Shown here in pieces: positions 4,877 through 64,000 of a stretch of 64,000 nt of DNA (position 1 is the first letter of the stretch; each line of letters opens with the position of its first letter). Made by a program: the position numbers and the translations under genes. Under the pieces are notes generated by a model. The model worked only from the letters and a program-made list of their open reading frames with translations. It was not told the origin of the DNA and searched no databases. The DNA is from Nemertoderma westbladi (lineage: Eukaryota; Animalia; Xenacoelomorpha), in NCBI GenBank assembly GCA_032718475.1, contig JAUCBJ010002525.1, positions 1-64,000 on the forward strand. Reading direction: 5' to 3'.

Positions 4877-4974
4877 ATTTAAAACCTCTTATAAACTTTT
4901 TTAAACTATTGGGGCGGAAAATATTCGTGTTGGGCAGGAAAAACTGGTCTAGAAAAGAGAATTTAATATTGCTT

Positions 4975-7900: not shown

Positions 7901-8277
7901 TGGTTTGAGTGTATGAAGGGATTTCTATTGGTTTGGGTGTATGAAGGGATTCCTGTTGGTTTGAGTGTATGAAGGGATTCCTATTGGTTTGGGTGTATGA
8001 AGGGATTCCTATTGGTTTGAGTGTATGAAGGGATTCCTATTGGTTTGGGTGTATGAAGGGATTCCTGTTGGTTTGAGTGTATGAAAGGATTCCTATTGGT
8101 TTGGGTGTATGAAGGGATTCCTGTTGGTTTGAGTGTATGAAGGGATTCCTATTGGTTTGGGTGTATGAAGGGATTCCTGTTGGTTTGAGTGTATGAAGGG
8201 ATTCCTGTTGGTTTGAGTGTATGAAGGGATTTCTATTGGTTTGGGTGTATGAAGGGATTCCTGTTGGTTTGAGTGTA
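4975..8277. repeat. 28-bp tandem satellite, about 118 copies
   Basis: Unit gaagggattcctRttggtttgRgtgtat at strict 28-bp period. Confidence 0.99.
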
Positions 8278-8514: not shown

Positions 8515-11500
8515 CTAGTCTCCAACATCGTTCGAAGGTTGAACTTTTCTTTCTAATATTGGGGAGATAGACAGTTCCCTGGGAGTAGTTTGGTCTCTGG
8601 AACTATCTCTGGGTGTAGTTTGTTGACTTTCGTACGACACAGGTCTACCATCGATGTCTCCAGCCTCTACAATGTCCCTCAGTTTCTTCTTTAGCTGTCT
8701 CGATTGTTTCTTATAGTAATACAAGTCCTTCTCTAGGTCCTCCACTCTCTGTTCCAACTCCTCGTCTACTCCACCCGATCTCAGATCCGACCCCGCCATC
8801 TGCTTTATCAAGGTCTGCACCCGATACTCGTGTTGCTTCCTAAGATGCGTTAACTTCCTATCATTCTCTACAGCGTCCTTCTCCAAAGCGTTCTCTAAGT
8901 TCCCTAGCAACCTCTGCTGCTCATTTACTTTCACTTCGAGTTCTGTGTTCTGAAGTTGAACACGCTTCTCTCGATCCCTTAAATCTACGACTTTATCAAA
9001 AAATACTTTTAATAAATTGGAATTCTCGTTGGCACTTAGATTTCCTAATCGACTCATCAGCTGGGAATACGATGTCTTCAGCTGTTTATTTGATTCACTT
9101 AAACTCAACTGTTTGCTTTGTATAACGTCGGTTTTATACTCTATAGTTGCCTCTAATGCTTCTATACCTTCCTGTAACTCAATCAATCGCCGTTCATCAG
9201 CCACGCTTAGGACTTTACCTTCCATAAGGTCGGTGTCTAGCTTCAACCTCTCGTTATCTAACTTATCTCTGGCTGCCAATAACTCTTCCACGTTGTTCTT
9301 CAGTTTATCCCGAACGTCCCTCGGGGTAGCAGGCCGTTCAATCTCGGCGTTCCGTTCCGCTATTTGGTTGTCAACATCTCGGAGTTTACTAACTATATCG
9401 AGTTTATTGCAACTCATCTGTTGGCTGCTCCTCAACTGTTGCAACTCCAACTGATTGCGCTCTCTCAACAGTGCCTCTTTGTCCTCCACAATCGTCTCCC
9501 TTCTCCTCAACTCTCTCTGTAAGTCGTTCAGTTTATGTTTCGTTTGGAGTATTTTCTCGACTTCAGTATCCAGCCACCGTTTCTGCTCATCAATACGTTT
9601 ATTCTCCCCAACCAACCCCGCTGTCGACTGCCGTATCTTTCTCTGCGCTACGGCTAACTCCTCAGTTTTCCGTCTCAGAACTTTCTGCTGGTGTTCATTT
9701 CGTATCTCGAGCTCTTTGCACCGGTTTTGGTCCCTCTGTAAATCCCTATCCAGTCTGAGTTTTCTTTCACTCTCCTCCTTCAGTCGTCTCTGCAACAGCT
9801 CCTGATGGGACCGCAATCTCGCTATCTCCCCTTCCAACTCCGATATCTTTTTCCCCGCGGAGGTGACAGGAATTCCCGCCAACACCTCAGCTTCCTTCTG
9901 CCGTCGTTCCAAAACCGAGAGTTTCGTTTTTGCCTCTTCGAGCTGTTTCTCGTATTTCCGTTTCAGTTTTTCCTTATCGGCTTCCACCTTTTGTCCTTTA
10001 CTCTCTAAATCGACTAGAACTTTCTGCGCAACCTCCGATTCTTCCTTGGCTTTCTCAGTTTCTTTCTGTAGATCAGCGATTTTTCTTTTGTTTTGCTCAT
10101 TAAGTTTCTCCGCTTGCTTCTCACTGCGAACCAACTCCCGTATCAACTCCTCTTTCAGACGGATATTAATAGACAACTCCTTCATCCTCTTGGACGACTG
10201 TTTAATCTCCTTGGCACTCGCTTTCGCTTTCCTCCGGGTCACATCTGTGCTCCTCCGCAACTCGTCCAACTCGTCATCATCTTTAACCTCGTTCTGTTTA
10301 TCGCTGACCAGCTCGTTCGGTACGGAATTCTCATCGTTCAAACCGACGGCCGGGTACTTCGTAAAGGTAGACTGTAACGGTCGGGATGGGGTCTCCCGTA
10401 ACTTCAGTAGGATTTCGTCTCCAGGCAACGGGAGTCTTTGAGCCACATCCTTCTCCTCGACTTGCATCAGCAGTAACTGACTCCGGGCTCGGACGCCCTG
10501 CAACATCTTCTCAACAGTCAGCGGACGGGCCGGAGTCGTAAAGACCTCGCGAGAGACATTACCATCCATAGCCACTAAGGGGCGCTCTACAGGGGCGCTC
10601 TTTGTCTGCCTAGTTGGGGGTCTCGACTCGACTGACACACCGCCATCTCCTGATTGGTCGACAGAGTCGTTAACCTGGACTGACGCGTTAGCGACCACCT
10701 TATTGCTATGGTAACCGTCTAGTTTCCCCTGTAGGTCTACCAACTGCTCCTGGTATCTCCTTTGCAGCTTTTTACTGTCTTCCACAGAGACTTTGGCCCG
10801 ACTATATTTATCTTCTAGAATGGAAACTCTCTTTATAAGCTCGTTAGTTTCTTTGGTTTTATCATTAAATATTTCCTCATCCATCTTCAACTCTAGTTTA
10901 CTTTGTTCCAACTCTTTCGTTAGACGCTTAACAGTCTCATCCACATTGTTTTCTTTATCCAACACATTACCCAAAGTCTCCCCTTCTACATCGATTATCC
11001 AATCCTTAATTTTATTTAGAAGTTCCGTATTTCCCTTGAGTAAGTCGCCGTTAACGAACTCCATTAGGTAATGGTAAGCTCGTTGGGTCAGCGTAGAGAA
11101 GTGGTTACAATCGGCCCTCAGTCTGTCCAACTCTTCCAGCATACCTTTATCGCCCTCAACCACTACGTTACTCCTCTCCTTGTTGAGTTGTTCTCTTAAC
11201 TCGTCGATCTGGGAGCGCATTCGCTCTACTATAATGCTCTGAGGGTCTCGATTCACTACCGGTTTGTTCTTTATGTTTCGGGCGCGGTTGGCGAACTTTA
11301 GCGAGTTGTGAGACTCCTCGTAGTCGAGGCTAGATGGACTAACGCACGCGATCATCAACGTGTTGGAGTTGCCACCCAAGGAGTCCTTTAGGAGTCGAGT
11401 TATCTTGGAATCCCTGTAGGGTATGTGGGAGATTTTCTTCTTTGGGTCCCCCAGAGCGCTGATTACGTTACCCAAAGCCAGTAATCCAGTGTTTATCGAT

Positions 11501-12327
11501 ATGGATTCCTTAAATCGCTCACCGACATTCCCCGTTCGGTTGGCTCTTTCGCTACCCGCCAAATCGACGAAGTGGATCTTGGCGGACATGAAGTGGTTGG
11601 CGCGTCGGGACGATATATTCTGTGGGCTGCGCGGGCTGGGCAGTGGAGTGTCTCGCCAAGACTGCTCGATAACAATAGTGAATATACAATGGGAGCGCGA
11701 GGAATGTTCGTTCATTAAAGTAGCGGCGGTCTGCCGTAAAGATGAGCCCATCTCTAGACAATCTAATAATTGTTCTTTAGTGAAACATTCAACCTCAGTA
11801 GCCCCTATAACCATGGTGTTACCTCGGTCGTCCTCACGTATGTGAATGTCCTTCATATTATTTTCGTTATCTAAGAGATCCCGCAACTCCTCTCTGTATA
11901 ATTCGATGTAGGATACTTTTAATCGGATGTTTCTATCGATATTTTCTTTGAGTTTCTGGAATATCTTATTGACGGCCCTCGGCACTATACCGTCACATTG
12001 CTCCATATCATATTCATCCTCGTCTGGATTCGCTCCGATTATCGTGTAAGTTTTACCGGAACCAGTCTGCCCATAAGCGAATACCGTGGTGTTGTATCCA
12101 CGGAAACTGTCTTCGATCAACGGGACTACACTCTCTTGGAAAACGTCGGCTTGAGTTGAGTGAATCTGTAGAACATTATCGAAGGTGAACAGTTTCTGTT
12201 TGTGTCCGGGGCCCAGGACTACTTGATGACGTTGAGGGTTGACTTGGAGACAAACGTCCTGGTTGATGAGTTTCTCGCGAGGAAGTAACGGACGGATTCG
12301 TACCGCCACTCGCACCGGGACCTCCAT
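8515..12327 (-). CDS. KIF27: Kinesin-4 subfamily KIF27/KIF7 (Costal-2-like) motor protein, single exon, about 1270 aa
   Basis: N-terminal motor domain with VRVAVRIRP, P-loop GQTGSGKT, switch I NEHSSRSH, switch II DLAGSE, and HIPYRDSKITRLLKDSLGGN. The motifs GERFKESISINTGLLALGNVISALGD and ELSINIRLKEELIREL are typical of KIF7/27. Long coiled-coil stalk. First ATG at 12327. Confidence 0.9.
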   Translation of the reverse strand: MEVPVRVAVRIRPLLPREKLINQDVCLQVNPQRHQVVLGPGHKQKLFTFDNVLQIHSTQADVFQESVVPLIEDSFRGYNTTVFAYGQTGSGKTYTIIGANPDEDEYDMEQCDGIVPRAVNKIFQKLKENIDRNIRLKVSYIELYREELRDLLDNENNMKDIHIREDDRGNTMVIGATEVECFTKEQLLDCLEMGSSLRQTAATLMNEHSSRSHCIFTIVIEQSWRDTPLPSPRSPQNISSRRANHFMSAKIHFVDLAGSERANRTGNVGERFKESISINTGLLALGNVISALGDPKKKISHIPYRDSKITRLLKDSLGGNSNTLMIACVSPSSLDYEESHNSLKFANRARNIKNKPVVNRDPQSIIVERMRSQIDELREQLNKERSNVVVEGDKGMLEELDRLRADCNHFSTLTQRAYHYLMEFVNGDLLKGNTELLNKIKDWIIDVEGETLGNVLDKENNVDETVKRLTKELEQSKLELKMDEEIFNDKTKETNELIKRVSILEDKYSRAKVSVEDSKKLQRRYQEQLVDLQGKLDGYHSNKVVANASVQVNDSVDQSGDGGVSVESRPPTRQTKSAPVERPLVAMDGNVSREVFTTPARPLTVEKMLQGVRARSQLLLMQVEEKDVAQRLPLPGDEILLKLRETPSRPLQSTFTKYPAVGLNDENSVPNELVSDKQNEVKDDDELDELRRSTDVTRRKAKASAKEIKQSSKRMKELSINIRLKEELIRELVRSEKQAEKLNEQNKRKIADLQKETEKAKEESEVAQKVLVDLESKGQKVEADKEKLKRKYEKQLEEAKTKLSVLERRQKEAEVLAGIPVTSAGKKISELEGEIARLRSHQELLQRRLKEESERKLRLDRDLQRDQNRCKELEIRNEHQQKVLRRKTEELAVAQRKIRQSTAGLVGENKRIDEQKRWLDTEVEKILQTKHKLNDLQRELRRRETIVEDKEALLRERNQLELQQLRSSQQMSCNKLDIVSKLRDVDNQIAERNAEIERPATPRDVRDKLKNNVEELLAARDKLDNERLKLDTDLMEGKVLSVADERRLIELQEGIEALEATIEYKTDVIQSKQLSLSESNKQLKTSYSQLMSRLGNLSANENSNLLKVFFDKVVDLRDREKRVQLQNTELEVKVNEQQRLLGNLENALEKDAVENDRKLTHLRKQHEYRVQTLIKQMAGSDLRSGGVDEELEQRVEDLEKDLYYYKKQSRQLKKKLRDIVEAGDIDGRPVSYESQQTTPRDSSRDQTTPRELSISPILERKVQPSNDVGD

Positions 12328-12367
12328 TATAAAATATACAACCAATTTACACGAAACTTACAGCGGG

Positions 12368-17457: not shown

Positions 17458-18333
17458 TATATATTTAGTTAAATACAGCAATATTAATTTAGCCTACTGG
17501 TAGTGTAATCAGGTAGGCCTATAATAGAAGCCTAGCCTATAACAAACAGACAAAGAGGCAAAAACGGACGGACTGACGGTGGACGGAGTGTATTTGTCGC
17601 CCAACTGATGCCAAACTGGTCTGTAGATATAGTAGGCTAGGCAGGTAGGTACGGCTGTACGGGCCCTGTTGAAAAGTTTTATTTCCTGCGCCGAACGCGG
17701 CGCCTGGTGCAAAAAATCTTGCGCCGGATCAGTGCGAAGCCACGCCAGGTGGGGGTGGCCCGGCAGCCGGTGCACAAAATCCTGCGCCGGCTCTGTGAAA
17801 TGCTCAGCCAGGCTGCCAGGTGTAAAAAAAGTATTAATAATTAGGCCTACCGATAATACAGTAATAATACAATAGGCAGATACCGGTAGGCCCTAATACA
17901 GTAGGCCTAATAAAAATATTTCGACGCCGGCCACCGGCTGCATCGACAGGCCGAGTGCAGCATCTCTATTACAGTATTATTGCATTATGGCCAATAGAGC
18001 ATATTATTGCAAATTATGCAATAATAACACTACACAGAAATAATACAGTAATACATAATAGACTACAGGCAACAGGACGGGTATATCTTTTGCGTAGAGG
18101 TATAGCCTACATAGAGGCTTCATGTAGGTATGTGTAGCCTACATGTAGATGCACGTGTAGGGTGAATGTAGGTAGGTGTAGTCCCATAGATATTAATGTA
18201 ATTTATGTGTCAACTTGCAGTAACGTGATACACGGTCGTCAATCAGGATGTATGGCAATAATCTCTGATCTCCACGGTACAATACGGTACATCAACATGC
18301 AGACCTGTCTGCTGTCAGACAACAGGTTTTACT

Positions 18334-20930
18334 CAAGGACTGCTATACTACAGGACTGGCACACTGAATATCCAGACCCCGCTAGCGGGGTCCATTAGTT
18401 CCCTTCTAATATGGCTCCGAAATAGATGCAAATTTGTTAAATTTTCAATTTTCTCTCACAGATAAATTGTTATTTATTCTTCTTATGTGTTTATGACGAA
18501 CCTAGCTACCTCAAACCTGCCTCGCTGCCTGCTTTAACGTTTGAGGCTGATATAATTATTGCTAAGCCAGTGATAGTCCATATACAATAATACTGTATGG
18601 TAGTAATCGTGCTCGTGTACTATGCATAATAAATTCAGACACCACCGGCACCGCCCACTACTCTCGCCACCAGCCCAGCCTAATACATTAATTAAACATC
18701 TTAGTGGGGCGAGCCACGTAGTAGTTGAAGCTTTACTGTACAGATTTCATAATGTTGACATTCTTGTGATCTGCAATTTAAGATTATAAATTTTAACACG
18801 CAAAATGAATATTAAATAACGATTAGAAAATGTATTTATTTCCAGCAGCTGCTATTTCAATCTGCAATGGTTTTCATATGTATAAATTGCCGGCAGTGTA
18901 GGTAGACACACTCGATTCAAAATAACAACAGCAATTGGCCCTTAAAAGGGGCATTTGGGTTGAGTTGTATTACAGTATGTGACATATGTCTGTAGGCATA
19001 TTGAATTATCAAAATTAATTACAATTAAATTAATAGATAGTCGAATAGTCAATCTTCACTACAGAAGATTAATGTCCTTTATCCAGACCGGTAATGCGGA
19101 GAAATTTCCTGTTGGTTCCGTGACCTTCGGAAGATCGCTTTTCAGAGCACATCATGCTGGAGCGTTTCTGCATTCCGTTTAACAGTGTGTTCGCAAGGGT
19201 GGTACATGCAACTGCGGGGGGTGCTGGTATTATATCGTACTGTACAGCGATGGTTTTGACCACCTGCGCTAATTGACGGTAGCATAGTATGGTTCCATCA
19301 GGTACCGAATCTACCCATGTCGCTGACACCATTACCCACCAAACCAACTCATGTGATGGCAGCTGTAATCCACCCCTAGATAGCCGCCATGTTTGTGGAA
19401 AGAGGTAATTGCTTCCTTGATACACGTATGGGCAAATAGGGATGTCATGGAATGAACTGGAATCATCTGCACCATCACTGAAGGTCCCCCGTATAAAATC
19501 TTAACCATCAAGCAGAGGACTGAGTTGGCCAACTCCGATGGGTCATCCTTAGCATAGCCAAACACTCCATGTCCTTGATACAATAGTTTGGGAACCACCT
19601 TTACTTCGTCTGTTATAAGAATCGCCTTTGGGGATTCGGCAGCAGGCGTACCAGCTGGTAAGCTGTTCTTTGCTTTACGAATGGCCATTTCTATGAGCAA
19701 ATCACTGGTGACTCCCTGTTTTAGCGATCTTATCTTCTTTTCGCATGGAAGAATAGCAATCTGCCGCAGTATACTATATGGCAGACGCGGGTAGCCCTGA
19801 ACAGCCAGTAGATAATCCGACTGTGAGTAACACTTTGAACCGCTACAAGGCAGCTGCAACTGATGGGATATAAACTCCAGCTGGGTTTTGTATTTATAAT
19901 CAGAACTGGAGGCGATAGCGTCATCAATCAACTCTCGGGCTTTCAGCAGCAAGTTCTCGGTCGTTCCTACCACGCTTCGTTTAACTGTGACAATAACTTC
20001 CAACAGCTAGGACCAGCGAATGAGCTGCGCATTAGGAGCGAGGCAATAGTTAAGCGATATACGTTTGTTAGTAGGATTAAACGCAGTAACATAGATATCA
20101 CTGCAGAGAAGCTGCCTCGTTTCAATACATATTTTGCCAGCGTAGGAATCGCTGACAAAAACATACAGCATAATGAAATCAGCAGTTATCTTAACAAATA
20201 TATCGACGGATTCAACATGAACATCGTTGCGAATCCACGTTTCGACATCGCCACGGAAGATATCGAACCCGCCAATTCCCGGCGGTTTAGCGATTGAACC
20301 TGTCGCTCTTCGATCGGTGGCTCCGCTCGTAACTTCCCTGGTGGCGGAGGAACACAGGATGCTGGAACCCCAGGAAAGAAGAATGGCAGGATAGTCGGCC
20401 GCAACGCTCCTCCGGGAACCTTCCGATGAGGGATATCCTGCGGGAATCCTGGCCAATGTCGGATACAAATAACAGCATCGGCGCTATACTTTATGGGCGA
20501 TCCATCAGGAGCAGACCGCTTTGGAAGAGTAGCAATCCATTGCTGACGTTCCACGCCGAATGGGAGCTTGAAAGTTCGTACAGTTCTTCCCTCGTAGTTG
20601 TCATTGCATCCATACACACAACAGTGTTTCCCCATTCCAGTTTATAACCCGAATAATCTGATATTACTGTGATGTGTGTTAAAACTACTGTAGCTACCGG
20701 TACTAAGCTGCAGCCTGTCAGCCTGTAGTTATGTTAAACCTTTTTAAACATTACTAAATAATAATACATAAATATAAATCCACTGATTTAATAAAGTACA
20801 TACCGGTAAGTAATTGGGTTGATTACACAGTTGTACAGCCAGACAGCAGTACTGGAATTCTGCAACTAATGGACCCCGCTAGCGGGGTCTGGATATTCAG
20901 TGTGCCAGTCCTGTAGTATAGCAGTCCTTG
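18334..20930 (-). mobile_element. P-element superfamily transposon nested in the MULE
   Basis: Perfect TIRs of about 67 bp (CAAGGACTGC...GCAGTCCTTG). 8-bp TSD GTTTTACT at 18326-18333 and 20931-20938. Internal THAP-transposase remnants. Confidence 0.93.
19069..20635 (-). pseudogene. Frameshifted, internally deleted THAP/P-element transposase
   Basis: THAP (CCVYGC..FKLP..W..ICIRHW) at 20635-20186. ILITDEVKV..ANSVLCLMV at 20003-19332. C-terminal RGGLQLPS motif at 19425-19069. The three pieces are in different frames. Confidence 0.85.
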
Positions 20931-22551
20931 GTTTTACTGCATACTGCAGTACTGTATAAATATCAAACATCGCGTTCTGATTATACTAAAGTCCCTTACT
21001 CGTCATAAATATTATGCCCTAATAAATTTGAGTATGCTAACGCCACGAAAGGCATCGTTCCATTAGATTAACTCGTTCTGATTTATATGTTTATTGAGTA
21101 AGAGTAACCTAAACAATAACAGCCATCATCGCGGGGATTATAGTCTGCCAGAAACCCTGACCCCCCTCTGCCCATCTTTATCTGTTTATCAACCATACAT
21201 CCATGGGACTTGAACAGTACTTCAGCATTGAAATGTTTTGGACGTTTTGTTTTGAAAGTAAAAATATAGAAGTCTGGAAGTTTTGTTTGTTTTAATTTTT
21301 CAGGCAGTCACATTCCACCAACCAGCAACAGTCCCATCCCTTCCCACTATCCCGCGGACCACCACACTGTTTCATTATAAAGTATTCCCATCTCGATGAT
21401 GGGAATTAATCAGTAATCCGATGGGATTCAAATCCCATCTCGAAGTAACAGCAAAACAATAACACGAAAGTCAATAGCTTTACAGTTATATTTGATTGCA
21501 TTGAAAGTTAATAGAAAGAAGAAGTTAAATTGCATATCCATTAAAATATCATGAAATTGATACGGCAGTTTAGTAGATTAAAACGGCCACAGCAAGATTT
21601 ATAAAATGAAAAATAAGTAAAATCAGCACACAATATTATCAATATAGACATTGAAGACAATTTAATAAACAAATACTATAAAAAAATATCTACTAACAAT
21701 CAATACATGATATATATAATATATATAATATACATCAGCGACTACCATCGCCACTCTGGTTCAATCAGTCAGTCCGGTATCATTGTTAGCGTTTTGTTGA
21801 ATTACCCACTCATCCTCAGACCCTCATGGACACCGACGACGAGCTAACCCTAACCGTTAGTCGATTCCTCCTTGACTGGAAACATCAGGTTCGGGCCGTT
21901 CGGCCCATACAAAGTCATTAGCCTCCATGCCTGAACCCGCAGGATCATAAGATCTACAGTATGTATCGGTATATCGTTCAGTCGTTTTTTCCTTTGTCAG
22001 TACTGTAGTATTGATAGGCTCCGTCTCGTGGGTATTCAGGGGACCCCCATTCGACGTATTCGCATCTCCTCCTGGTTGTTTCGGGTACCACCGCCCGCCA
22101 TATGCGCATCTCTTCGTGGTTGTTCCGGGTAGGCTACCACCCCCGTTCGCCGCATTCGCATCTCATCGAGGAAGTTCGGGTCCGGGTACCCCGTGTAGGC
22201 CTATTCATTCATCATTGTTGTTTTTAAAGACCTACCTACACCTACCTACATTCACCCTACACGTGCATCTACATGTAGGCTACACATACCTACATGTAGC
22301 CTCTATGTAGGCTATACCTCTACGCAAAAGATATACCCCAACAGGACCGAGGATATCAGATACCGGTAACTACTGAACTAACTGACTAACAGTGAGTGAC
22401 AGTACAGTTGTAGGCATAAAACATAATAAAGGACAGACAAGCGACAGCGTAGAGAACTCCTGATTTCTCTTTAATTAATTTCTTTATTTAACTAAGTTAT
22501 TAGAAGCTTCTTGTAGGAAGTAATTAAGAAACAACCATTATTTATAAAGAG

Positions 22552-25500
22552 TGTTAGAATATCATAAACTGTTAGTCTGCCGGACTCGGTTTCTTACATT
22601 TTGAGAGAGATATAAGGTGGAGGGAAATTCAAACTTACTTTTAGTTAGAGGTAGCACTGTGTGACATACCGGCACTGCTGCACTGCAGCAATACTGCAAT
22701 AGGTCTAGTGCATTTATTGACAGGCCTAAATCGTGTATACATTATACAATGATATGTTAGAATATCCTATCTTAACATGGCGCAGTGTGTACTCCAACCT
22801 ACACTGGAGTAAAATAATTCCCAGTGGCAGAATATAACCGAATACAGGAATATAGATCCCTAATCCATCCATCTTATCCGGAATTTTGAAAATAACTTGC
22901 CCTTACAATGGGAGAGAAACCAGATAATTATTTGGACTTAAATGAAGAGGATCTACCACAACTCGATATACAAGATCTTCGACATTACTGTACCCAGGCT
23001 GGCATAAACTTTACAAGTAAAACAGCTGCTAAAACTCTTCAGAAGAAGTTATCCGGAGCATTAAACTTTGAGGATGGAAAGGGCGAAACTGCCTCATGGG
23101 ACACGTTTGCTAAAATTTTAGCAGATGAACGGCGGGCTGCTGAGGATCGTTCCGCTAGAGAGCGTGCCGCCGCCGAATTACAACGAGCCGAGGATCGCGC
23201 CGTCACAGCCGCGGAGCTACGGCTTGTAATAGAACGTGCTGACGAGGACAGACGTGTCGCCGCTGCGCAGTTCGCTCAATTAATAGCAACACTCCATCCT
23301 GCCGCTGGCGGTGGAGTGGCACCGGGGGTTCCACCTCTGGCTCCCGGAGATGTACCTGAGCATCAAAATCGACGTCGTCCTATCGACATTAAGAATCTCG
23401 AAAAGATAAATAATAACGTCGACTTCCAAACCTTCATCCGATGGCGGAAAGCTTGGGATGTTCACGCACACCGGCAACAGATATCGCTTTTCCCTCGCGA
23501 CGAGCAAGTATATGCCTTGATAGAGGCGTTGGGAATGGATATCCAACAAACTATTAAAGTTACGCTTCGCCTGGATATCGACTCAGGTGACACAACAACT
23601 GAGACGTTGTTGGACGCGTTTCAGGCCCATTTACGTTCTAAACGGAGTCTTGCCGTTGATGCCATAAAGTTTAGAGAACGTAAACAGGGTCCTAACGAAT
23701 CCTTTGATTCACTCCGAGTTTCACTCGAGGAACTAGCTGACAGCGCTGAGCTGTGCGACCATTGTCGTAATCGTCAGTTAGTTACACAGATCATCGTGGG
23801 TGTTCGAACCTCTGAGACCCGATCCAAACTCCTCGAAATTCTACCTGAACCGACACTTAATGACTGTGTTCGAATAGCACAGATGGTTGAAGCAAGTGAG
23901 AAGAACGAGGTAATTATAGGTAGCGGCAAACCTATAACACAAATCTCGAACTATCAACGGGAACGTGGACGATCACCAACCCGCGAAAATCGAGATAATC
24001 GGAATCCTTCGGGAAATCGAAATAATTCCAGCAATCCGAACCAAAGTTCCGGCAAATGTGGTATGTGCGGTCGAAAGACACACCCGGGTGGCAGAACTGA
24101 ATGTCCAGCCCGAAACGCCACATGCGACGGATGCGGAAAACTTGGACACTATAGACCGGTATGCCGTTCTAAACATAAAACCAAGGAACACAAGGTTTCC
24201 ACTATCCGTCCAACTCAAAACTCTGTCAATCGCATTGTAATCTCTAACACAATATGCGAGCTAGAATATGTACCAGTCGACATATTTCGCACAGATAATA
24301 ATAATAAAGTTGGACATATTAAACAGGCCCTGCCCGACAGTGGCGCTGTTATAACCATTTTGGGCGAGAAACAATTCCACAAGATGGGCGGTAAAGGATC
24401 CGACCTTCTACCTGCCGGCAGGGAAGTGTTTTCCGCAGCAAATGGTTCTCCGATATATATATCGGGTCGTCTTCCCGTTCGAATAATTCATGAGGGCGAC
24501 ATCGTTGAGACCGAGATATACATATCTCGAGAATCCACTGGATTTATTATGTCTCTCCGACTATCTCAAGAGTTTGGACTCATTCCTTGGAATTTTCCAA
24601 ACAAAATCCATCCAGATATTTCCACTGTCAAAGCATCTCAGAATATGGAGAATTTGCAGCAGGAAATTCTGACAGAATTTGCAGATGTCTTTGATGACGA
24701 CTCGGTTCCATTATCTATGATGGACGGTCCACCGATGCACATAACACTTAAGGAAAATGCGGTGCCTTACCATGTAAATGGCGCCCGACCTATACCTTTT
24801 GCGTTGCGCGAAGAGGTTAAACTACTGCTCGACGATTACGAACGTCGTCAGATCATTGCTAAAGTTACTGAGCCTACAGATTGGGCTCACCCTTTAACGG
24901 TGTGTAGAAAACCAAATGGGAAACTCCGTTTGTGCGTGGACCTTCGACACCTTAATAACCAGGTTAAACGTCCACAGTATCCCACACCCAATCCACGCAG
25001 TGTAATCGCTAATATTCCGGCTTCCTCGAAATGTTTCACAGTATTCGATGCAGCACATGGATATTGGCAGATTCCCCTGGACTCAGAAAGCCAACTTCTC
25101 ACGACATTCACCACACCATGGGGGCGCTACGTACATCGACGTAGTGTAATGGGCCTCATCTCGAGTGGGGATGAATATAATCGTCGTGGAGACAACGCAT
25201 TGCAGGGTATTCCCAACGTGGTCAAGTTGGTTGATGACCTACTGATCTACGGAGACAATGTGGAAGAACATATCTCCCAGATTAGGGTTGTACTGCAACG
25301 CTGTCGTGAGGAAAAATTGTGTCTTCACCCAGAGAAGATACAATTCGCTAAGTCGGAAGTTAAATATGCCGGATTTCTAGTAGGAGAATCGGGAATAAAA
25401 CCAGATCCAATGAAACTTCGAGCGATCTCAAGTTTTCCATGTCCAACTAACATAACTGACTTAAGAAGTTTTGTCGGGTTAGTCGAACAATTGGCCCCTT

Positions 25501-27691
25501 TCTCACATGACTTGGCATCACATTTAACTCCACTACGTCCCCTATTAAGTGCGAGGTCTCCATTTATATGGACTCCAGACCACGAACGCGCATTCATTGC
25601 GACAAAGGCCGGACTGATTTCGCCGCCTATTCTAGCATCATTCGACCCCACTAAGGAAACTCAGCTCCAAACTGATGCGTCCCGGAAACATGGCCTTGGG
25701 TACGCCTTACTCCAACTCCATGGTGAAGATTGGCGTCTCGTTGAATGTGGTAGTCGGTTTGTGACCGAAACAGAATCCCGCTATGCCATAGTCGAGTTGG
25801 AAATGTTAGCGGTAGTCTGGGCAACCCAGAAGTGTAGATTGTACTTACTGGGGTTGCATAATTACACCTTAGTGGTGGACCACCAACCACTCGTGACGAT
25901 CATTGATCGTTACACCATCGATGCAACGGAGAACACACGCCTCCAGCGACTAAAGACCAAACTGTCTCCATATGTGTTTACCACAATCTGGAGAAAGGGG
26001 AAAGACCATCGAATACCAGATGCTCTATCCCGCGCCCCTGTGGATGACCCCACTCCAGAGGACATTGTCGATGACGGTGATATGTCATATTACATCCGGG
26101 CGGTTACTCAACAAACCATCTCGGATATTGAAGCCTCTTTTGACGACTCCATTCTAGAATCCCTGAATCAATGTGTTCTGAACGACCCTGATTACATGGC
26201 ATTACACAAAGCCATACAATCCGGTTTCCCCCTGGACACTCGGACACTATCTGGAGTTCGACCATTCTGGTCAATTCGTCATGAACTCACGACTGACCAT
26301 GATCTCATTCTATATGGTCATCGCATAGTCATCCCGCTTGAAGAACGACGGAAAATTCTTCAACGCTTACATTCGTCTCACCAAGGTGTTGAAAAGACGC
26401 TGCGTCGGGCACGTCAAACTGTTTACTGGCCAGGATTGACCAGTGACATTCGGAACACTACTGGGTCGTGCCGTGAATGTTTGGCTTATCAACCAAGCCA
26501 TCCCAAAGAGCCAATGCTCTACGACCCCCCGGCTACACGGCCCTTCGAAGAAATTTCGTGCGATTTCTTCTCCCTAAACGGTCATGATTACCTCACTGTA
26601 GCGGATCGCTACTCCGGGTGGCCAGAAGTCCTCTCTTACAGCACCCCTCCCACTGCGGCGAAAACTATCGAGAGTGTCCGCAGCGTGTTCATCCGCTTTG
26701 GTGTCCCTACACGTTTACGATCCGATGGCGGCCCTCAATTTACAGCCACCGTATTCGAGGATTTCCTCAATGATTGGGGCGTCAAACCGATCGTTTCTTC
26801 ACCGGGATACGCGCAAAGTAACGGTCACGCCGAATCAGCGGTGAAAGCTATCAAATCCCTCCTCGCAAAGACTGGAGGAAACATCAAGAGTGAGAGATTC
26901 GGGGAGGGGCTACTCGAATTACGGAATGCGCCACGCATGCATGGGAAATCGCCAGCCGAAATTCTGTTCGGACATCCTATCCGTACACGAATCCCCATCC
27001 ACAGCAGTGCGTTCCATGGGAGCCATCAGTCTACTCGGACTGAAATGGATATAAAGGCCCATGACCTAAAATCCAAAACTGCCAACTATTATAATAAGGG
27101 CGCCCACAAACTCAAACCACTTCAGATTGGGGAGAAGGTCCTTATCCAGAATGCTTCTACAAAGCGTTGGGACCGATCCGGTGTCGTTGTGGAGATCAAT
27201 CCACATCGTTCTTACAGGGTCCGGACCCCATCGGGCCGCGCACTACGGCGCAACCGAAGATTCCTTATTAAGGACACTGCGGCAGACCCTATTATACAGA
27301 AAGAACAACCCTATCAACGGAAACATGTAACATGGAAACCGACGTTAGTGGATGATATACCTGTCGTTCATAGATATCCACAACGTAATCGACGCTCTCC
27401 AGACAGACTACATTCCTCTACAAACTGAAAGCTTTCATATCATATACTAAAAGCTCGAAGGGGGGTGTTAGAATATCATAAACTGTTAGTCTGCCGGACT
27501 CGGTTTCTTACATTTTGAGAGAGATATAAGGTGGAGGGAAATTCAAACTTACTTTTAGTTAGAGGTAGCACTGTGTGACATACCGGCACTGTTGCACTGC
27601 AGCAATACTGCAATAGGTCTAGTGCATTTATATACAGGCCTAAATCGTGTATACATTATACAATGATATGTTAGAATATCCTATCTTAACA
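22552..27691 (+). mobile_element. Full-length Ty3/Gypsy LTR retrotransposon (Mag-like)
   Basis: 226-bp TG..CA LTRs at 22552-22777 and 27466-27691, with 3 differences seen. PBS TGGCGCAGT at 22778. PPT ending GAAGGGGGG at 27465. Flanks AAGAG/AAGAT form a 5-bp TSD with one mismatch. Confidence 0.96.
22908..27428 (+). CDS. Gag-Pol polyprotein, single uninterrupted ORF, 1506 aa
   Basis: Two Cys-His knuckles ([10 protein letters not shown]; [14 protein letters not shown]), protease DSGA, RT (RLCVDLR, LVDD), RNase H (QTDAS, ELEMLAV), and integrase H-H-C-C plus D-D-E (SDGGPQF, SNGHAE). Domain order is Gypsy-type. Confidence 0.97.
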
Positions 27692-34005: not shown

Positions 34006-36725
34006 TATCGGTATTTATTTGACCGGTCTTCCGTCAGTAACTTAATGCAGTAATAATGCAGACAGCTGATGTATTACAGAAGTTCTTTAAGGCAACTTAA
34101 AATCCAGAAGTGTTGTTAGTCTGTATTCAGGTATTAATATCGCTCAACAACTGAACTAACTAATTTTATGTTAAGTTAGGGCTATGTTACCATGGGCCTC
34201 ACAGTGACGACATTTGACATCTGTTTATCAGTAAAACTGTAATACAGGTATGTGTGATAATATTAATTTACAGATTTAATGGCAGAATGGTAAACCGAAC
34301 CAATAATATGTATTGTAATAAATGATATTAGGCTATTGCTGCATTGCCAATACAGTAATAATGTAATAACAACACTCATAAATAGGATAATAAATAGAAA
34401 ATAGGCCACTAATTATTGTGAATGGCAGGTATATAATTGCCAATTGGCAGTCAAATAGGCCTACAGTCTATAACACCATACATGCGAATATAAGTACTGT
34501 AGTATGGTAAATAAGGCCACAGCGCACAGCAGAAACCTACTCCTTAACTACCAAAATATTTACTAGGGCCAGGTACTGCTGTACTGTCAGACTATTTTTA
34601 TTCGCAGCTAGGCCTAAATAAGAGTTGCCCTTGTGCAGTGCAGTAAGTATTGCTACCGGTAGCTATAAACTCCTTTTCTTATGAATAAATTATTTTCATT
34701 GTCATCTGTCTGCCGAATTAAAGTTTGAAGTTTATAGATGTTGCTAAGATACAAACCTACCGCCCTACCACTCACATCCCTTGCTTTTTGCTTGGATTTA
34801 TTGGTCAGGAGAATTCTTAAAGTTTTCCTTTACTAATTACCCCACCAGGCCAGCAGCAGCTGGGACTTTATTTAATACAATTTTAATAAGCACCGAGACT
34901 GACACAAACGAAATACCGGTACCGGTACATTAATTGATAAATTTTAATTAAAATTGTGAATAATTATTAATTTCATTTAATTATTTATTTATAAAAGCAA
35001 ACAGCGAAACAGGGAAGCTTTCACTATTTGTACAGTGTACCAGGCGCAATGTGTATTCTGGATAGTTTTTATTATTATAATGTAGTAACAGCTAGCTACA
35101 TATGATTGCGAATATGTGGGGCGAGCCACGCAGTCGGGGCGAGATTTAGCGCACAATTATAATTAGTAAATAGGGCGAAATTTAATATGTCTGTATGTCC
35201 GTCTGTAATGAAAAAATCATTCGTAAATAACTATGGAAGATTTTACCCATTTTCAACCAAATATTGTAGGGCATACTAGAGAAAAAGTTCCAATATTTTT
35301 GAAAGTTACTGGCAAATAGCTCTCGAACGTTTGACTCCAGATCAAATCGAACTTGTTTCGAACTTGGTCATGTTCGCGTGATCTGCTGCGCGACGCCCCA
35401 CGAGCGTGTACAGTAAGTACTACACTACTTACACTGTTACACTACATGGTACTGTTCGCCGGTGATTATAAACAAACGGTTATACTGTAGTTATTATAAA
35501 CTCGTCTTTCTCAATTGTTCAATGTTTTTTTTATTCTCTAATGACGTTAATTAGGAGCCCGCTCGACAGGCGGGATACTTACTGTAAGAATCTCAGGGAT
35601 ACATTACTGTAAAAATCTCAGGATATACACTGACTGACTGACTGACTGATAATTATCTAGGTTCAGGCACTTCCTGCCTGGCGATTTTGTTGAAATTTTA
35701 CAAGTAAATTGCTTTGGTGGTTCATAATCGCGTTACAAAATATCAGATTAATTCAATGTGTGGTATTCGATATATTTCGTTTTTTGAAATTATTTTGTCG
35801 CGAAATTAAAAGCAATGGTAAAGTAACAACTCCTGCCTGAGCTGCTGCAGCAGCTAGCTGTGTAGGAATTCCATCAAGGCAGAATTTCTTGACCACACCC
35901 CTCCTGCTGCTGGCTGCTGTCTGAGTCTACACTTCCTTATCAGCTCTCAGGTATAGACAGAAAGTAGTTGAGTTGTCAATAAACAAAATAAAATATACAA
36001 CTGCAGTAGGATTATATTATTATTATTCCACGAATCACTGGGCTGATTATTTTGTATAGGATATATGTAGAATGTTCTTAAAAATAATATTCTTATTTTT
36101 TTTATTACATATGATTATCATCATTTTTTAGCTGAAGCATTAATAGTGTAAATTAATTTAATTATATTTTAATACCATTACTACGTTGGCATACTGTAAG
36201 ATAAGTTTTAACATTTCTTACAAATAGTGGTGCGAGCATAAATCAAATCACGCAAATTTAAAAGAACCGGGTGTGTTGTCATAGCAAAGTTTCATTTTTT
36301 ATTATGTGGGACGAGCCACAAAGTCAGCTAGCCCCACGCCTTATAGTTTAGACAATTGTTTAGTTTACTTACTGCTGACCGACAAGGTTGATTTCTAATA
36401 GTCTTGTAAATAGGATACTTCCCCCGGGCTCCTTCCAGCCAGCTTGCTGGCTTTCTAGTGTATATTGTATGTTTATTTATTCGTGTAATTTCGCACTACC
36501 AAATCGGCAGGACGATCTACAGTATTGTCCAACTTTTTATATCGCAGTGCGAAATTATTCCTCAGTATTTCCCTACGCCATACGTTTGCGATATATAATA
36601 ATAAATTAATTGTAGCAGTGGGGTGGGTGAGGGTGAATTAAATATATTATGTACCGTACAGTAATAGAACAATAAGATAATGCTCTCCATAGCGAAAAAT
36701 ATCAACCGACCCTATTGGGACTCGA

Positions 36726-36774
36726 ACCCGGTACCTACTGTAGGTTTCAAACTTCCGGTTGTCTTCAGCCGGGT
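36726..36774 (-). ncRNA. Minimal type I hammerhead ribozyme motif inside a tRNA-like unit (about 36705-36805)
   Basis: ACCCGG-CUGAAGA-CAAC CGGAA GUUU-GAAA-CCUA CAG UAGG-UA-CCGGGU. Complete core, perfect 6-bp stem I, GUA cleavage triplet. Flanked by A-box TAGCTCAGTTG and B-box GGTTCGAGTCC. Confidence 0.72.
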
Positions 36775-37099
36775 GTGTGTGTCCTAAGACAACTGAGCTA
36801 CCAGAACGTGTGAAGAATTTTATTCGCTATAGAGTGGATATTATACTTTGGCTTTTAACTAATCACTCAAAGGAAAGTACAGTACAACGTTATTAATTAA
36901 CAGCCTGGTATACGGGGTAAAACAGTGGTTTCTACAACACTGTATAGTTATTCTTTGAGGCATGGTTGCCATTACTGGCAGAGCACGGGCATGTTGCACT
37001 TTCCTTTGAATGATTAGTTAAAGGTCAAAATATGATATCCACTCCATAGCGAATAACTTATTCTCCGTCCTGGTAGCTCAGTTGTCTTAGCACACACAC

Positions 37100-37143
37100 A
37101 ACCAGCTGATGATAACCGGTAGTTTGAAATCTAGGTACCGGAT
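37100..37143 (+). ncRNA. Second, more degenerate hammerhead motif inside a tRNA-like unit (about 37068-37160)
   Basis: AACCAG-CUGAUGA-UAAC CGGUA GUUU-GAAA-UCUAGG-UA-CCGGAU. A-box TAGCTCAGTTG upstream, B-box GATTCGAGCCC downstream. Stem I is mismatched. Confidence 0.6.
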
Positions 37144-37858
37144 TCGAGCCCCAGTAGAGTTTGCGATATATGTTTAGTATGACACAGCTTCATTCAAAAT
37201 ATTAGCCATTGTATATTGGTCGCGCTTTTAGGCCTTTAACAGTTTAACCTGCTAATTTATATGTCTATTAATACCTGACAGCCCAATACAGATGAACTCA
37301 GCCGAAGCCAGTCTAGCGCAGCGAATGACCCACCGGAGGTGGGAGACTGGATTCGATAGCACAGAGAGCCGTAGGACACTTTGTATTATTCGATTGATCT
37401 TTACTATATAATCTCCAAAAACTATGCTTATTTTCAGTTAAATAGTAAAAGTTCCTTTTAGGTGCTGCGCTATAAATACTACGCAGAGATATGACTTATA
37501 GTAATACTAATTACAACGGGCGGGCATGAGATAACGCAAATGTTTACATCCTATAGTATTTATTGAACGTTCACACGCTAGCACGGACGGACAATCCCTG
37601 CAAACAGTGAACGTTAAACTAACGTTAGATTTGTGTCTAAGTTTCGTTAAAATTTAACATTGCCAAAACTAACAATAATCAAACGTTAATAACCGTTACA
37701 CTTTAGTTGAAAATCAACATTTAGTAATTGAACTATAACCATACGTTCAATCAACGTTATAGTTTAGTTAAAAAATAACGATTTAAAACTTAGTCTAATC
37801 AAACGTTACATTGCCGTTGATTTTCAACGTATCAACAATTTAAATATTTGAACGTTAA

Positions 37859-39294
37859 CCCTATTATCACTGGGGTGTTTTGACCATTAGCACCACTGGG
37901 GGGGGGGGGGGGGGGGCGATTCGGCCCACCCACTATATTTTTGTAGTCGTCCAATGAAATCCTACAAAATTTGGGCTGTTGGTGAAACAACTATAGATGA
38001 ACACAACCAAACCTTAAAAAGTTAAAATTTCATAAGCAGGGACTCATAATTTTGATGAAAAATAAAAGTAGTCCCAGGACAAAATTACAAAATTTTTCGT
38101 TTTCTAAAAACTAATAGTGTGGCAGTATTGGCTAGATTTAGTAGGTTTTTCAAGACGCTGAATCGAATGTGATTATATTCCACTTCCAAAAATTGAAGTG
38201 GATGCTATTTTTCGTGCACCTAAGAAGTGGGCGTGGCACTTCAAATTTTGAAAAATTAGATATTCAGAAAATGCCCCTAATTTTTTTATTTCAACGCATC
38301 TTTATGGGTTTTACAGACCGCTGAATCGATTGAAAGTAATATAGAAGCCTGAAGACTTAGAAGTTAGCCATTTTTTGAAATCAAAACTTTAGTGTTTTTT
38401 CCGAATAAAGTAATTTTGAAAATTTGAAGTGCCACGCCCTAATTTTGGTGCACCGAAAATTACGTACACAAAGGATTTGAGGCTTCTATATTACTTTCAA
38501 TCGATTCAGCGCTCCAGAAAACCTATAAAATTAATTTGAAATCAAAACTTTAGTGAATTTTCCGAATCTCGTATTTTTCAAAATTTGAAGTGCCACGCCC
38601 TAATTTTGGTGCACCAAAAATGGCGAACCACTAAGTCTTCAGGCTTCTATATTACTTTCAATCGATTCAGCGCTCCAGAAAACCTATAAAAATGCTTTGC
38701 AAATCAAAACTTTAGTGTATTTTCCGAATCTCGTATTTTTCAAAATTTGAAGTGCCACGCCCTAATTTTGGTGCACCAAAAATGGCGAACCACTAAGTCT
38801 TCAGGCTTCTATACTACTTTTAATCGATTCAGCGCTCCAGAAAACCAATAAAAATGCTTCGAAATCAGAACTTTAGTAAATTTTCCGAATAAAGTAATTT
38901 TGAAATTTTAAAGTGCCACGCCCTAAATTTGGTGCTCCAAAAATGACGTACCACTACACTTACATACTTGTATAGAGCATTAGAGTGATCCAAACCAATA
39001 AAAATAAATAAAAATAGCCCAAACATAAATAATTACTAAATCACGAATGACTTTGTAAAATTCGAAAATTTCAAAAAATTTGGTGCTGGAGACCAAATTT
39101 TGAGGTGGCACCCACATCGAAAAGTAGAAATCCAATTGCAACGGCGTTTTTTGCAAAATATGCGGCATTAAATTTGGCTAATTCTCACAAAAAATTGGGC
39201 CGGTACGTAATGTGGTTGCATAGTTACAGCAACTAAAAACTAGGAAGGGGCCGATTCCCCCCCCCCCCCCCCCCCCCCCCCAGTGGTAATAGGG
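37859..39294. mobile_element. piggyBac-type non-autonomous element (TTAA TSD)
   Basis: TTAA|CCCTATTATCACTGGGG ... CCCCAGTGGTAATAGGG|TTAA. Internal tandem repeats of about 170-180 bp (38400-38945) plus an inverted copy. Confidence 0.88.
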
Positions 39295-51908: not shown

Positions 51909-52646
51909 TCACCCCGAGTACCGGTAGACCAAGAATTCGTTAGACACCGTGTACTTGGCGGCAAACTGACGACCCTCTGGCGTTGGATCAGAGAAAGCGA
52001 TCTCCTGAGGACCCAGACAGGTCCCGTAGACAAAGTTTCTGCGGAGACAGTCGACCAGACGTGTGGCCACGCCAGTGCGTCGGTCGCAGCGCGCCACCCA
52101 GATTTGGGCTATTCCAGCCCGAGCCGGCGTCGCCACATCAGAGCAGAAGCAGGCCGAACCGGGGGACGAAACAGCAACGGCTGGTTTAGAAATAGGTGAT
52201 AGTGGGGTTGCAGGGGGGAGGGGGGTTGTCGTATTATTAGTGAGGGTGAGGGGGGTTAGGGGATGCGGTGCTGAGTCCATATTACATGTGGGTGTGGCGT
52301 TTAGGTCTTGTGATAGAAGTACATGAGATTTAAAGTTTGAGCCTTGAATTAGCGAGACTTGTGTATCTTGGGTTGACTCTTGATATTGCGATCCTTGGGT
52401 TGGTTGGGTTGATTCTTCAGACTGAGATAATTGGGTTGAATTCAGCCCAATCGAAGACGGTGTGTCTGGAAGCGTTTCTAAATTGTGTTCGTAGACGATT
52501 TTTCGGTTATCGGGACCCTGTGCATTGCGACGTTGTTCAATATTGCTTCCCTTAGACGCATTGATCTCGATGTTGGAGACTGCTGTAGTTTCCGATACAG
52601 TTGTAGTTGTTCCGGATTCCGAAGTCAAGTTCAACACACGAAAACC
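51909..52646 (-). CDS. ESCO2: Terminal exon of ESCO/Eco1 cohesin N-acetyltransferase
   Basis: Branch point CTAAC plus pyrimidine tract and CAG| at 52647. Exon begins GFRVL and ends with the ESCO motifs CFCS..PARAGIAQIWV..RRTGVATRLVDCLR.NF.YG..IAFSDPTPEGRQFA.KY..FLVY. ESCO1 versus ESCO2 cannot be resolved. Confidence 0.9.
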   Translation of the reverse strand, partial: GFRVLNLTSESGTTTTVSETTAVSNIEINASKGSNIEQRRNAQGPDNRKIVYEHNLETLPDTPSSIGLNSTQLSQSEESTQPTQGSQYQESTQDTQVSLIQGSNFKSHVLLSQDLNATPTCNMDSAPHPLTPLTLTNNTTTPLPPATPLSPISKPAVAVSSPGSACFCSDVATPARAGIAQIWVARCDRRTGVATRLVDCLRRNFVYGTCLGPQEIAFSDPTPEGRQFAAKYTVSNEFLVYRYSG

Positions 52647-53298
52647 CTGCGCAAAAATAAGTTAGAAGTTACATTTTTGTATAGAAAACCTATAATAGAT
52701 TCTCACAAAGTATTTTGTGTTGCAGGTGGTAAGATCCGCAATTTAGCATCGCATATTCGCTAAACATCCATTGGTTATACATAGCCTTCCCAGACTATAA
52801 TGCCAATGGGAGAGCTAGTTTAAGATAGGTTTATACATAGGTTTAAGATACACATCTAGTTTAAGATAGGTTTACATATACATAAGTTTGCATATAAAAC
52901 ACCATTTTCGTTAGCCAAAGTTGTATAAAAATTCCCACAATTTATCAAAAGTTATATTAAAAGCTGTATAAAAATTATTTAAAGATAAATAAAATATCGT
53001 AAAAGTTATATCAAAATTGCAAAACGTTATATAAAATTCCAAAGTGATGACTCAGAATGCTTCAGTCGTCGTCGACCTAGGTCAAGAGGGATCAACGATT
53101 TTTCACATATCAATAAACTTTAATTAGATATAAATGCATAATTAATAATGTGTAACTGTTAATAAATTTCACTAAATAAACTTAGGTACATAAAAAAAAA
53201 CTTAGGTCGTAACGCTGCAAAGTGCTACTTTGCACACAATGATGTAAATAGTTATTGAGAATTTTGATAAAACTTTTGCTAACGTAAATTGTGGTTAA

Positions 53299-56473: not shown

Positions 56474-56662
56474 TGTATTTATTTTGATAACTACCTCTGT
56501 ACTGCAGTACTGGTACCGGTACCTCAGAATTACTAGAGCCTACCTCAGTCAGTCAGTCTGTACCTACTGACCTACAACTACAACCTAAGCCTGTAAGCTG
56601 AACAACAGCTCAGACACCGGTACCGGTAGTTTCTCGCACCAAAAACGGTAAATCCCAACAAT

Positions 56663-57154
56663 ATGACAGTAGAGTGTGGAGAATGCAAATGGTTTAACAA
56701 CGAGAAGGGTTTCGGATTTATAACCCCTGACGACGGTAGCCCTGATATATTCGTTCACCAAACCCAAATCTATTCTCAAGGATTCCGCTCATTATGTGAA
56801 GGAGAAAAAGTTGAGTTCGTTCGAGCGATGGACGAGAGAAACAACAAGGAGAAAGCGACCAATGTAACCGGGCCAAACGGGGACTACGTGAAGGGACAAC
56901 CGAGGGATGGAGGGGGGCGTGGGGGTGGGGACAGGTACGGAGGCGGAGGGGGAGGGAGCCGGTACGGGGGTGGAGGTGGGGGGTACGGGGGTGGTGGAGG
57001 GGGGTATGGGGGTGGCGGCTACGGGGGTGGGGACCGGTACGGCGGTGGTGATAGATACGGGGGCGGCGGAGGAGGGGGGCGTTACGGTGGGGGAGGGGGT
57101 TACGGGGGAGGAGGAGGAGGGGGATATGGCGGAGGTGGCGGAGGCTACTACTGA
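56663..57154 (+). CDS. Cold-shock-domain protein with Gly/Tyr/Arg-rich tail, intronless, 163 aa
   Basis: CSD with KWFN, RNP1 KGFGFI, RNP2 DIFVHQ, GFRSL.EGE.VEF and NVTGP.G. C-terminal (R)YGGGG repeats. No CCHC knuckles. Confidence 0.93.
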
Positions 57155-63761: not shown

Positions 63762-63830
63762 GGCCCCAGTGGCTCAGTTGGCAGAGCGTGGGACTTGGAA
63801 TCTCTAGGTACCGAGTTCAATCCCCCATTC
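63762..63830 (+). ncRNA. tRNA-derived SINE head or tRNA pseudogene
   Basis: A-box TGGCTCAGTTGG, D-arm AGAGC, B-box GAGTTCAATCC. Acceptor stem not intact. Shares ctaggtaccg with the hammerhead-bearing units. Confidence 0.6.
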
Positions 63831-64000
63831 CGGTGAATGTAGCGAGATTCAACTATTCTGACAGAGTGGATGAGTTTTAGGAGACTTGGCAAGTTTTTAA
63901 GAATGCGTTTAAGGCGGAAGGCGGGAGAGAAACTGCAGAGACTCAAAGAGACTTCAAAGAGACAACACCAAACTGTTAAAAGGGTAAAGGAAAAAGAGTT

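Follow-up and report, generated by a model that had tools for sequence, protein, structure and literature searches.

Hammerhead ribozymes recur across life, and repeated origins are assumed for them. Several described systems resemble in part the repeat family reported here, one copy of which, U1, lies on the minus strand of the window, i.e., the whole 64-kb stretch of Nemertoderma westbladi DNA that was analyzed. The Schistosoma elements Sm-alpha and Sj-alpha are described as high-copy short repeats that, like the U1 family, combine a tRNA-related Pol III promoter with a type I hammerhead (PMC6765202, PMC2770079). In Sm-alpha, however, the ribozyme is reported to follow the promoter and the units are often in tandem (PMC6765202), while in the U1 family the ribozyme lies inside the promoter and the copies found in the window are inverted. 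The animal non-LTR retrozymes, which have been proposed to be Penelope derivatives (bioRxiv 10.64898/2026.07.22.740005), share with the U1 family a unit size near 220 bp or more (PMC7229834). The axolotl hammerhead HHR_Amex2 and the majority form of the U1 family are alike in being type I, with a 2-bp helix III, a tetraloop, a U-U at the base of helix II and a 6-bp helix I (PMC7229834). The available text on these retrozymes mentions no tRNA frame, whereas the U1 family has one, with no head-to-tail tandem array at the U1/U2 locus.

Hammerheads of Penelope pLTRs are described with a palindromic helix III, opposite-strand pairs, inverted 5′-truncated neighbors and AT-rich flanks, all of which are found in the U1 family (PMC4209133, PMC8557442, PMC11167929). 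In contrast to them, helix II of the U1 family is short and has no G10.1-C11.1 pair, and no coding partner was identified. The Helenus TRIMs resemble U1 in their tRNA-derived A and B boxes within a 200-300-bp unit and in a 4-bp flanking repeat (PMC10886601), but the available text of their description mentions no hammerhead, and inspection of U1 by eye showed no second LTR, primer site or purine tract. Full-text literature searches (main texts without figures and supplements, with few subscription papers) returned no natural hammerhead nested between an A box and a B box or derived from a tRNA, and no paper naming a natural precursor sequence of a hammerhead. The combination of a tRNA promoter and a hammerhead is already known from Sm-alpha; the nesting between the A and B boxes suggests a new layout.

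The type I hammerhead skeleton of U1 was the sole match to the strict rules within the window, with a 6-bp helix I and the triplet GUA. The core motifs CUGANGA, GAAA and NUH are present in hammerhead order, surrounded by helices I, II and III of 6, 3 and 5 bp, helix II lying inside a terminal mismatch (Table 1). None of 200 dinucleotide shuffles of the window gave a skeleton as good as that of U1, and none of 200 window shuffles gave a loose hammerhead match followed by a B box. Both letters of the minimal tertiary contact described for hammerheads, U1.7 and a loop II terminal A (PMC11875169), are present in the predicted structure. The U10.1-U11.1 combination is an already known natural and active variant (PMC3088659, PMC7229834). 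Rfam returned no hammerhead match to the U1/U2 region (36650-37200) even at E 10, no match at gathering scores in the whole window, and only weak, unrelated matches in 35000-39000. Loose CTGANGA...GAAA matches in the window were at chance level (13, against a shuffle mean of 7.3); those at 9020-9081, 9626, 32225, 38349, 42998, 46979 and 51966 all failed the strict scan.

An earlier sequence-only reading had proposed that a short insertion into a tRNA-derived SINE created this ribozyme de novo, its core being built from a tRNA-Phe-like anticodon loop. The motifs on which that proposal rested were all found on the minus strand: TAGCTCAGTTG at 36800-36790, CTGAAGA at 36768-36762, the next 17 nt with GAAA as their last four (36761-36745), and a GTA triplet with the T-arm/B box at 36734-36718.

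Table 1. Coordinates of the elements and motifs in the window
Feature	Position	Strand	Description
U1, approximate full extent	36661-36881	-	Leader, tRNA-like head with nested hammerhead, and 3′ tail
Pol III A box	36790-36800	-	tRNA positions 8-18, exact motif; predicted +1 near 36807
D-arm remnant and CA tract	36775-36789	-	Length-variable: 2-nt loss, or form without 36781-36791
Helix I 5′ strand	36769-36774	-	6 Watson-Crick pairs with 36726-36731
Core CUGANGA	36762-36768	-	N7 is A in U1, U in the family majority
Helix II	36749-36761	-	10.1/11.1 mismatch, 3 bp and 5-nt loop ending in A
Core GAAA	36745-36748	-	Best alignment site of the anticodon loop of the 63763 element
Helix III	36733-36745	-	5 bp in U1 owing to 5 extra nt, 36736-36740
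GUA triplet	36731-36734	-	tRNA positions 46-48; predicted cut 36732/36731, from the hammerhead numbering of the skeleton
T-stem 5′ strand and B box	36718-36731	-	Also helix I 3′ strand; U1.7 is 36725
T5 run	36695-36699	-	Predicted terminator for Pol III, which would give an RNA of some 107-112 nt
Inverted repeat, 3′ arm	36680-36702		Imperfect, 23 nt, 78% complementary to 36817-36839
Inverted repeat, 5′ (leader) arm	36817-36839		
8-bp direct repeat	36656-36663 and 36877-36884		At the ends of U1
4-bp duplication	36656-36659 and 36882-36885		Alternative reading of the repeat at the ends of U1
U2	36995-37158	+	Faces U1 head-to-head; truncated 21 nt past the triplet
U2 A box	37074-37084	+	
U2 CUGAUGA	37106-37112	+	
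U2 GAAA	37126-37129	+	
13-bp perfect direct repeat	36584-36596 and 37159-37171		Encloses U1 and U2; candidate target-site duplication
63763 element	63763-63835	+	Insert-less, tRNA-like and decayed; may be a sister or an ancestor-type head

The hammerhead sits between the A box and the B box of a decayed tRNA-derived head. When tRNA numbering is applied, the cut triplet falls at positions 46-48, the 3′ strand of helix I at 49-54, and U1.7 at 55. Contig depth in one sequencing run (X1) falls from 17,786 to 550 across 36803-36808, just upstream of the tRNA-like 5′ end. Since NUH occupied positions 46-48 in 16 of 20 distinct tRNA calls from fetched loci, the fit of this tRNA segment to a cut triplet is general. 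The narrower GUH was found in 12 of the 20 and GUA in none; A48 is common to the family and to the 63763 element. It is likely that the tRNA variable loop and T-arm supply the cut site and the substrate strand of the predicted ribozyme, probably as a case of tRNA recruitment. The proposal of an insertion into a tRNA was thus upheld as far as the tRNA-derived frame and the substrate half are concerned, whereas the origin of CUGA from a Phe loop, discussed below, found little backing.

The family was characterized using contigs of four public DNA runs (at most three samples) aligned to the U1 locus. In three of the runs, 220, 374 and 206 contigs aligned on the 116-bp core, and in run X1 the depths of all contigs added together came to 70,000-148,000 over the core, against 9-98 for single listed contigs, a crude comparison. 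The copy number is roughly on the order of 10^3, a crude figure because contig depth is not a copy number, and the unrelated loose ends of the contigs point to dispersed copies. Other contigs cease to match U1 at 36661 (19, 27, 17 and 1 of them in the four runs) and, on the other side, at 36881. The tail ends raggedly, at 36661, 36663, 36669 and 36676, and the leader has a depth about 100-fold below that of the core. U1 belongs to a non-coding repeat family of high copy number that is likely a retroelement.

U1 is atypical of its family. N7 is U (CTGATGA) in 98.0, 98.2 and 96.4% of depth in three runs, the A of U1 being a minority letter and letters other than U accounting for 2-4% of depth; U2 also reads CTGATGA. 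Position 10.1 is U in more than 99% of depth, which gives a U-U where U1 has C-U. The five extra helix III nucleotides of U1 are absent from 61, 68 and 62% of depth (direct count, three runs), and contig depth is about sixfold lower in the bin that holds them. At helix I position 36772, a one-sided change of C-G to U-G was found in 38, 37 and 22% of depth. Among contigs on the U1 locus, no core variant besides N7 is listed at 2% of depth or more, and the contig depth tables, which are not single copy sequences, list no two-sided compensatory change in the helices. The majority form consists of a 6-bp helix I, a helix II of U-U plus 3 bp, and a helix III of 2 bp with a palindromic tetraloop, which would reach 8 bp in a dimer. 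There are signs of two variant forms: 11-19 contigs per run have loose ends at 36781-36791, which points to a subfamily whose spacer between A box and CA tract is 11 nt shorter, and a joint of 36728 to 37090, seen in one contig in each of three runs, represents a hammerhead-less deletion form in which the D-arm region is fused to the B box.

The element at 63763-63835 had been pointed out as a ribozyme-less relative of U1. It is indeed tRNA-like (E 0.0057 and 24.7 bits with the Rfam tRNA model, short of its gathering score of 29) and insert-less, and it has 19 of 23 nt in common with U2 (window blast E 0.24-0.35, weak), with 11 nt exactly identical, the unusual A48 included; its anticodon loop, however, is CTTGGAA, not a Phe loop. 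Compared with this element, the net extra sequence is 23 nt in the majority form or 28 nt in U1, instead of the 17-nt insert first counted. In a register test, the anticodon loop of the 63763 element was forced onto each position of the family form and the alignments were scored. With the majority form, placement on the GAAA side scored 53.1 versus 43.9 on the CUGA side. The GAAA side was better in 12 of 12 scoring-by-form combinations, and shuffled arms reached the gap in 3-29 of 300. The test lends modest support to a GAAA-side placement of the anticodon loop. If the 63763 element is a relative, the insertion would therefore have occurred 5′ of the anticodon loop and would have carried CUGAUGA.

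The explanation that we favor, at a little under an even chance, is a hybrid origin in which the right half of the predicted type I hammerhead comes from a tRNA or SINE and the left half was inserted. The right half, probably from GAAA on, would be old tRNA or SINE sequence, while the left half (the 5′ strand of helix I, CUGAUGA and the start of helix II) would have arrived, by capture or local mutation, as some 23 nt inserted between D arm and anticodon arm. Pol III would make an RNA of 107-112 nt, and longer RNAs by read-through. As a monomer this RNA would mostly misfold; two molecules could pair via the palindromic helix III and be cut after GUA. The cut would part the A box from the B box, leaving ends that RtcB could rejoin. 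Hammerhead products have RtcB-compatible ends. Ligation of retrozyme monomers by RtcB is described in the literature.

The predicted folding depends on the length of the RNA. In the isolated core, helix I is predicted to be populated at 39% (majority form) or 91% (U1), but at only 0.1-1% in the full-length predicted RNAs; in the predicted Pol III RNA its population is 0.3-1% and the hammerhead fold lies 5.7-7.5 kcal/mol above the minimum. The minimum-energy fold of a dimer of the 50-nt core contains both intermolecular helices I and an 8-bp helix III. For the full RNA of the majority form, a rough estimate for the double hammerhead is -53.4 versus a dimer minimum of -64.8, about 11 kcal/mol above. 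For HHR_Amex2, self-cleavage is reported to be weak in the monomer, at 22% within one hour, and much better in the dimer (PMC7229834). Helix I of U2 is broken at the second pair and U2 fails the relaxed skeleton scan, and its ribozyme is likely dead. Contig depth does not change abruptly where the cut is predicted. An active Penelope studied in vitro is reported to insert with no need of hammerhead cleavage, and no reads ended at its cut (PMC11167929).

U2 is 82% identical to U1 over 152 nt, and the two cores are on opposite strands about 340 bp apart. U1 starts with TG, and its leader arm could possibly be a fixed inverted copy of the tail. Of 30 joints in the contigs, 15 are listed, and five of these were dropped (one other repeat, three same-orientation deletions and one arm equivalence). 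Among the joints listed, 11 were inverted and head-to-head (10 of the 15 plus one from another table). Six of these 11 have an inverted 3′ fragment whose start falls at 36727-36735, around the predicted cut; the proportion is 4 of 9 if the two that the U1 indel could bias are left out (p about 3e-4 under a uniform null). A palindromic hexamer at the predicted cut could itself favor inversions. The clustering of joints is an indirect hint of cleavage, weakened by the partial listing of joints and by the palindrome.

Inverted 5′-truncated neighbors have been described as a Penelope signature (PMC8557442), and hammerhead pairs on opposite strands, 100-700 bp apart, have been reported in truncated Penelope elements (PMC4209133). 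With the T5 run ahead of the tail's most abundant portion, plain Pol III transcription would end short of the tail and could not copy the whole unit. This feature, together with the inverted 5′-truncated neighbors, the opposite-strand pair and the 13-bp repeat, favors a Penelope-type mobilization, and the copies were likely inserted by Penelope-type enzymes. A blast search within the window found no similarity of the tail to other window elements. The segments 36597-36655 and 36886-36994 belong to another abundant repeat (depth up to 68,000) that is interrupted by U1; one contig joins 36647 to 36921 of that repeat, and several contigs run from it into a U2-type leader.

Searches elsewhere were carried out with patterns of different stringency. 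The family-specific pattern was found in no stretch of the metagenome contigs, while general patterns were found at no fewer than 119 metagenome loci, 17 and 7 viral loci, and 57 prokaryote-genome loci. None of 200 fetched loci showed likeness to the unit by blastn at E 0.01, and none of the first 136 passed a strict skeleton-plus-B-box scan. In two fetched loci (L023 and L054, around 285-350, minus strand), a motif resembling a hammerhead carries one additional U, and its helix II, which pairs well, runs directly into a tRNA T-arm fragment; the motif lies beside a long inverted repeat, and its helix I failed the scan.

The window contains other features of note. An LTR retrotransposon at 22551-27691 has 227-bp repeats that are 98.7% identical and one open frame of 1510 aa with RT, RNase H and integrase domains, and looks young. 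Nested inverted repeats (103 bp at 99% and 67 bp at 100%) surround transposase-like frames at 18079-22338 and 18334-20930, which are likely DNA transposons. A KIF27-like kinesin is encoded at 8515-12357 (minus strand) in a single uninterrupted frame of 1280 aa, its tail being at most 38% identical to hemichordate, mollusc and other matches. The window also includes a 3.3-kb strand-skewed tandem array with a 28-bp base unit (4974-8277), a cold-shock-domain protein with a glycine-rich tail (56630-57154, plus strand) and an ESCO-type acetyltransferase exon (51909-52661, minus strand).

The tRNA frame admits readings other than the hybrid origin. A box, B box and terminator follow one another in the usual sequence and the insert is close to the usual intron region, as expected if U1 were a bona fide intron-containing tRNA gene spliced by the tRNA splicing endonuclease, an alternative raised together with the original proposal. 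Nevertheless, ARAGORN called no gene and, with introns allowed and a lowered threshold, returned pseudogene folds only, while over the whole window the lowered threshold brought up 190 calls that were discarded as junk; Rfam gave no tRNA match at E 10 in 36650-37200, and with neither program was an intact cloverleaf found in U1 after intron removal. There is no anticodon stem around CUGAAGA in U1, only 3 of 5 T-stem pairs are formed, and the copy number is very high. The frame is not a working tRNA gene, and this alternative is largely refuted and barely credible. The proposed Phe route would start from a Phe-like tRNA, possibly with an intron, whose anticodon loop provided CUGA(A/U)GA and whose intron-like insert provided helix II and GAAA; the 3′ strand of the anticodon stem would have been lost and its 5′ strand would pair with the T-stem, making the ribozyme wholly de novo. 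CTGAAGA cannot be taken as the Phe loop of the family, 96-98% of whose depth reads CTGATGA, although the majority letter at N7 need not be ancestral and 2-4% of depth is without U there. Counted from the first base of the A box, CTGAAGA also comes 32 nt on, whereas the distance is 23-24 nt in five natural tRNA-Phe-like genes, and no paired stem surrounds it; should the CA tract be an expansion, on the other hand, the five bases that precede the core would occupy positions 27-31. The argument is weak: it rests on a minority letter, and with the CA tract counted in, the motif is off its register by 8-9 nt. The anticodon stem of metazoan tRNA-Phe is a different one, and this tRNA is not known to have an intron in metazoans. 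In favor of the route, CUGAAGA is flanked by an intact anticodon stem in eight metagenome loci, in which an intron-like insert also ends in GAAA. Four of the eight share the five stem bases of U1, and three others (L039, L076 and L087) could pair the 5′ strand of the anticodon stem with the T-stem into a helix I of 6 pairs; L039 and L076 pass the relaxed skeleton scan. The precursors of these three intron-bearing tRNA-Phe-like genes (L039:259-361, L076:285-360 and L087) have CUGAAGA, GAAA and GUC in hammerhead order. Against the majority form, four of five tRNA-Phe-like genes scored 55.5-58.3 and the fifth 46.5, compared with 49.9 for the 63763 element, in a biased sample of prokaryotic-looking genes fetched by a pattern that demanded the motifs. 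Such genes show the feasibility of a Phe route, not ancestry: the eight loci were also selected by pattern and look prokaryotic, and the stricter scan gave no pass among the first 136. The route requires two insertions plus the loss of a stem, and the 63763 element aligns to the GAAA side instead. An origin of the core from a tRNA-Phe anticodon loop is poorly supported by these comparisons, and we consider the route as a whole unlikely.

A finished hammerhead could also have been imported whole from a Penelope pLTR or a retrozyme and joined on after a tRNA A box. The segment resembling a B box would then be either the 3′ strand of the ribozyme itself, adapted into a B box, or the point of microhomology with the tRNA T-arm. 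The geometry of the majority form, including the short palindromic helix III, is that of the standard animal type I design (PMC4209133, PMC7229834), the inverted joints are recurrent, and the distance between the U1 and U2 cores is within the range reported for Penelope pairs (PMC4209133). Yet the 3′ half continues as a tRNA, with a B box, the remaining T-stem pairs and correct numbering at 46-55, and has 11 nt identical to the hammerhead-less 63763 element; helix II is short in comparison with the 7-8 bp described for Penelope minimal hammerheads (PMC4209133), and no donor was seen. We doubt that the ribozyme was acquired in this manner. The imperfect inverted arms and the T5 run before the tail would also suit a miniature inverted-repeat DNA transposon, and the TG start and 4-bp flanking repeat are those of animal Helenus (PMC10886601), so that U1 might be such a transposon or a Helenus-type solo LTR in which the hammerhead is an inactive passenger or relic, as the poor predicted folding and the lack of an Rfam match would also suggest. 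The low depth of the leader, the ragged tail end, the structure of U1 as seen by eye and, among the joints listed, the clustering of breakpoints near the predicted cut all speak against it, and we regard it as decidedly improbable.

Returning to the hybrid origin, a bolder statement can be made, which we offer tentatively and would sooner doubt than believe. A working hammerhead may have been born inside an animal tRNA gene frame and then amplified about a thousandfold. The tRNA segment 46-55 would have been a ready-made substrate strand (triplet, six pairing bases and U1.7) and a short insertion would have completed the enzyme; as the cut splits the Pol III promoter, only RNA left uncut or rejoined by RtcB would give live copies, and the genomic breakpoints at the cut would record cleavage in vivo. 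Such a layout is unusual for a retroelement, as the cut would part the element's own promoter. If the ribozyme was imported or is dead, the family would add to the hammerhead repeats with a tRNA head, a kind already familiar from schistosomes. The substrate half located on tRNA positions 46-55 and the candidate insert-less relative would make a de novo origin of a hammerhead testable.
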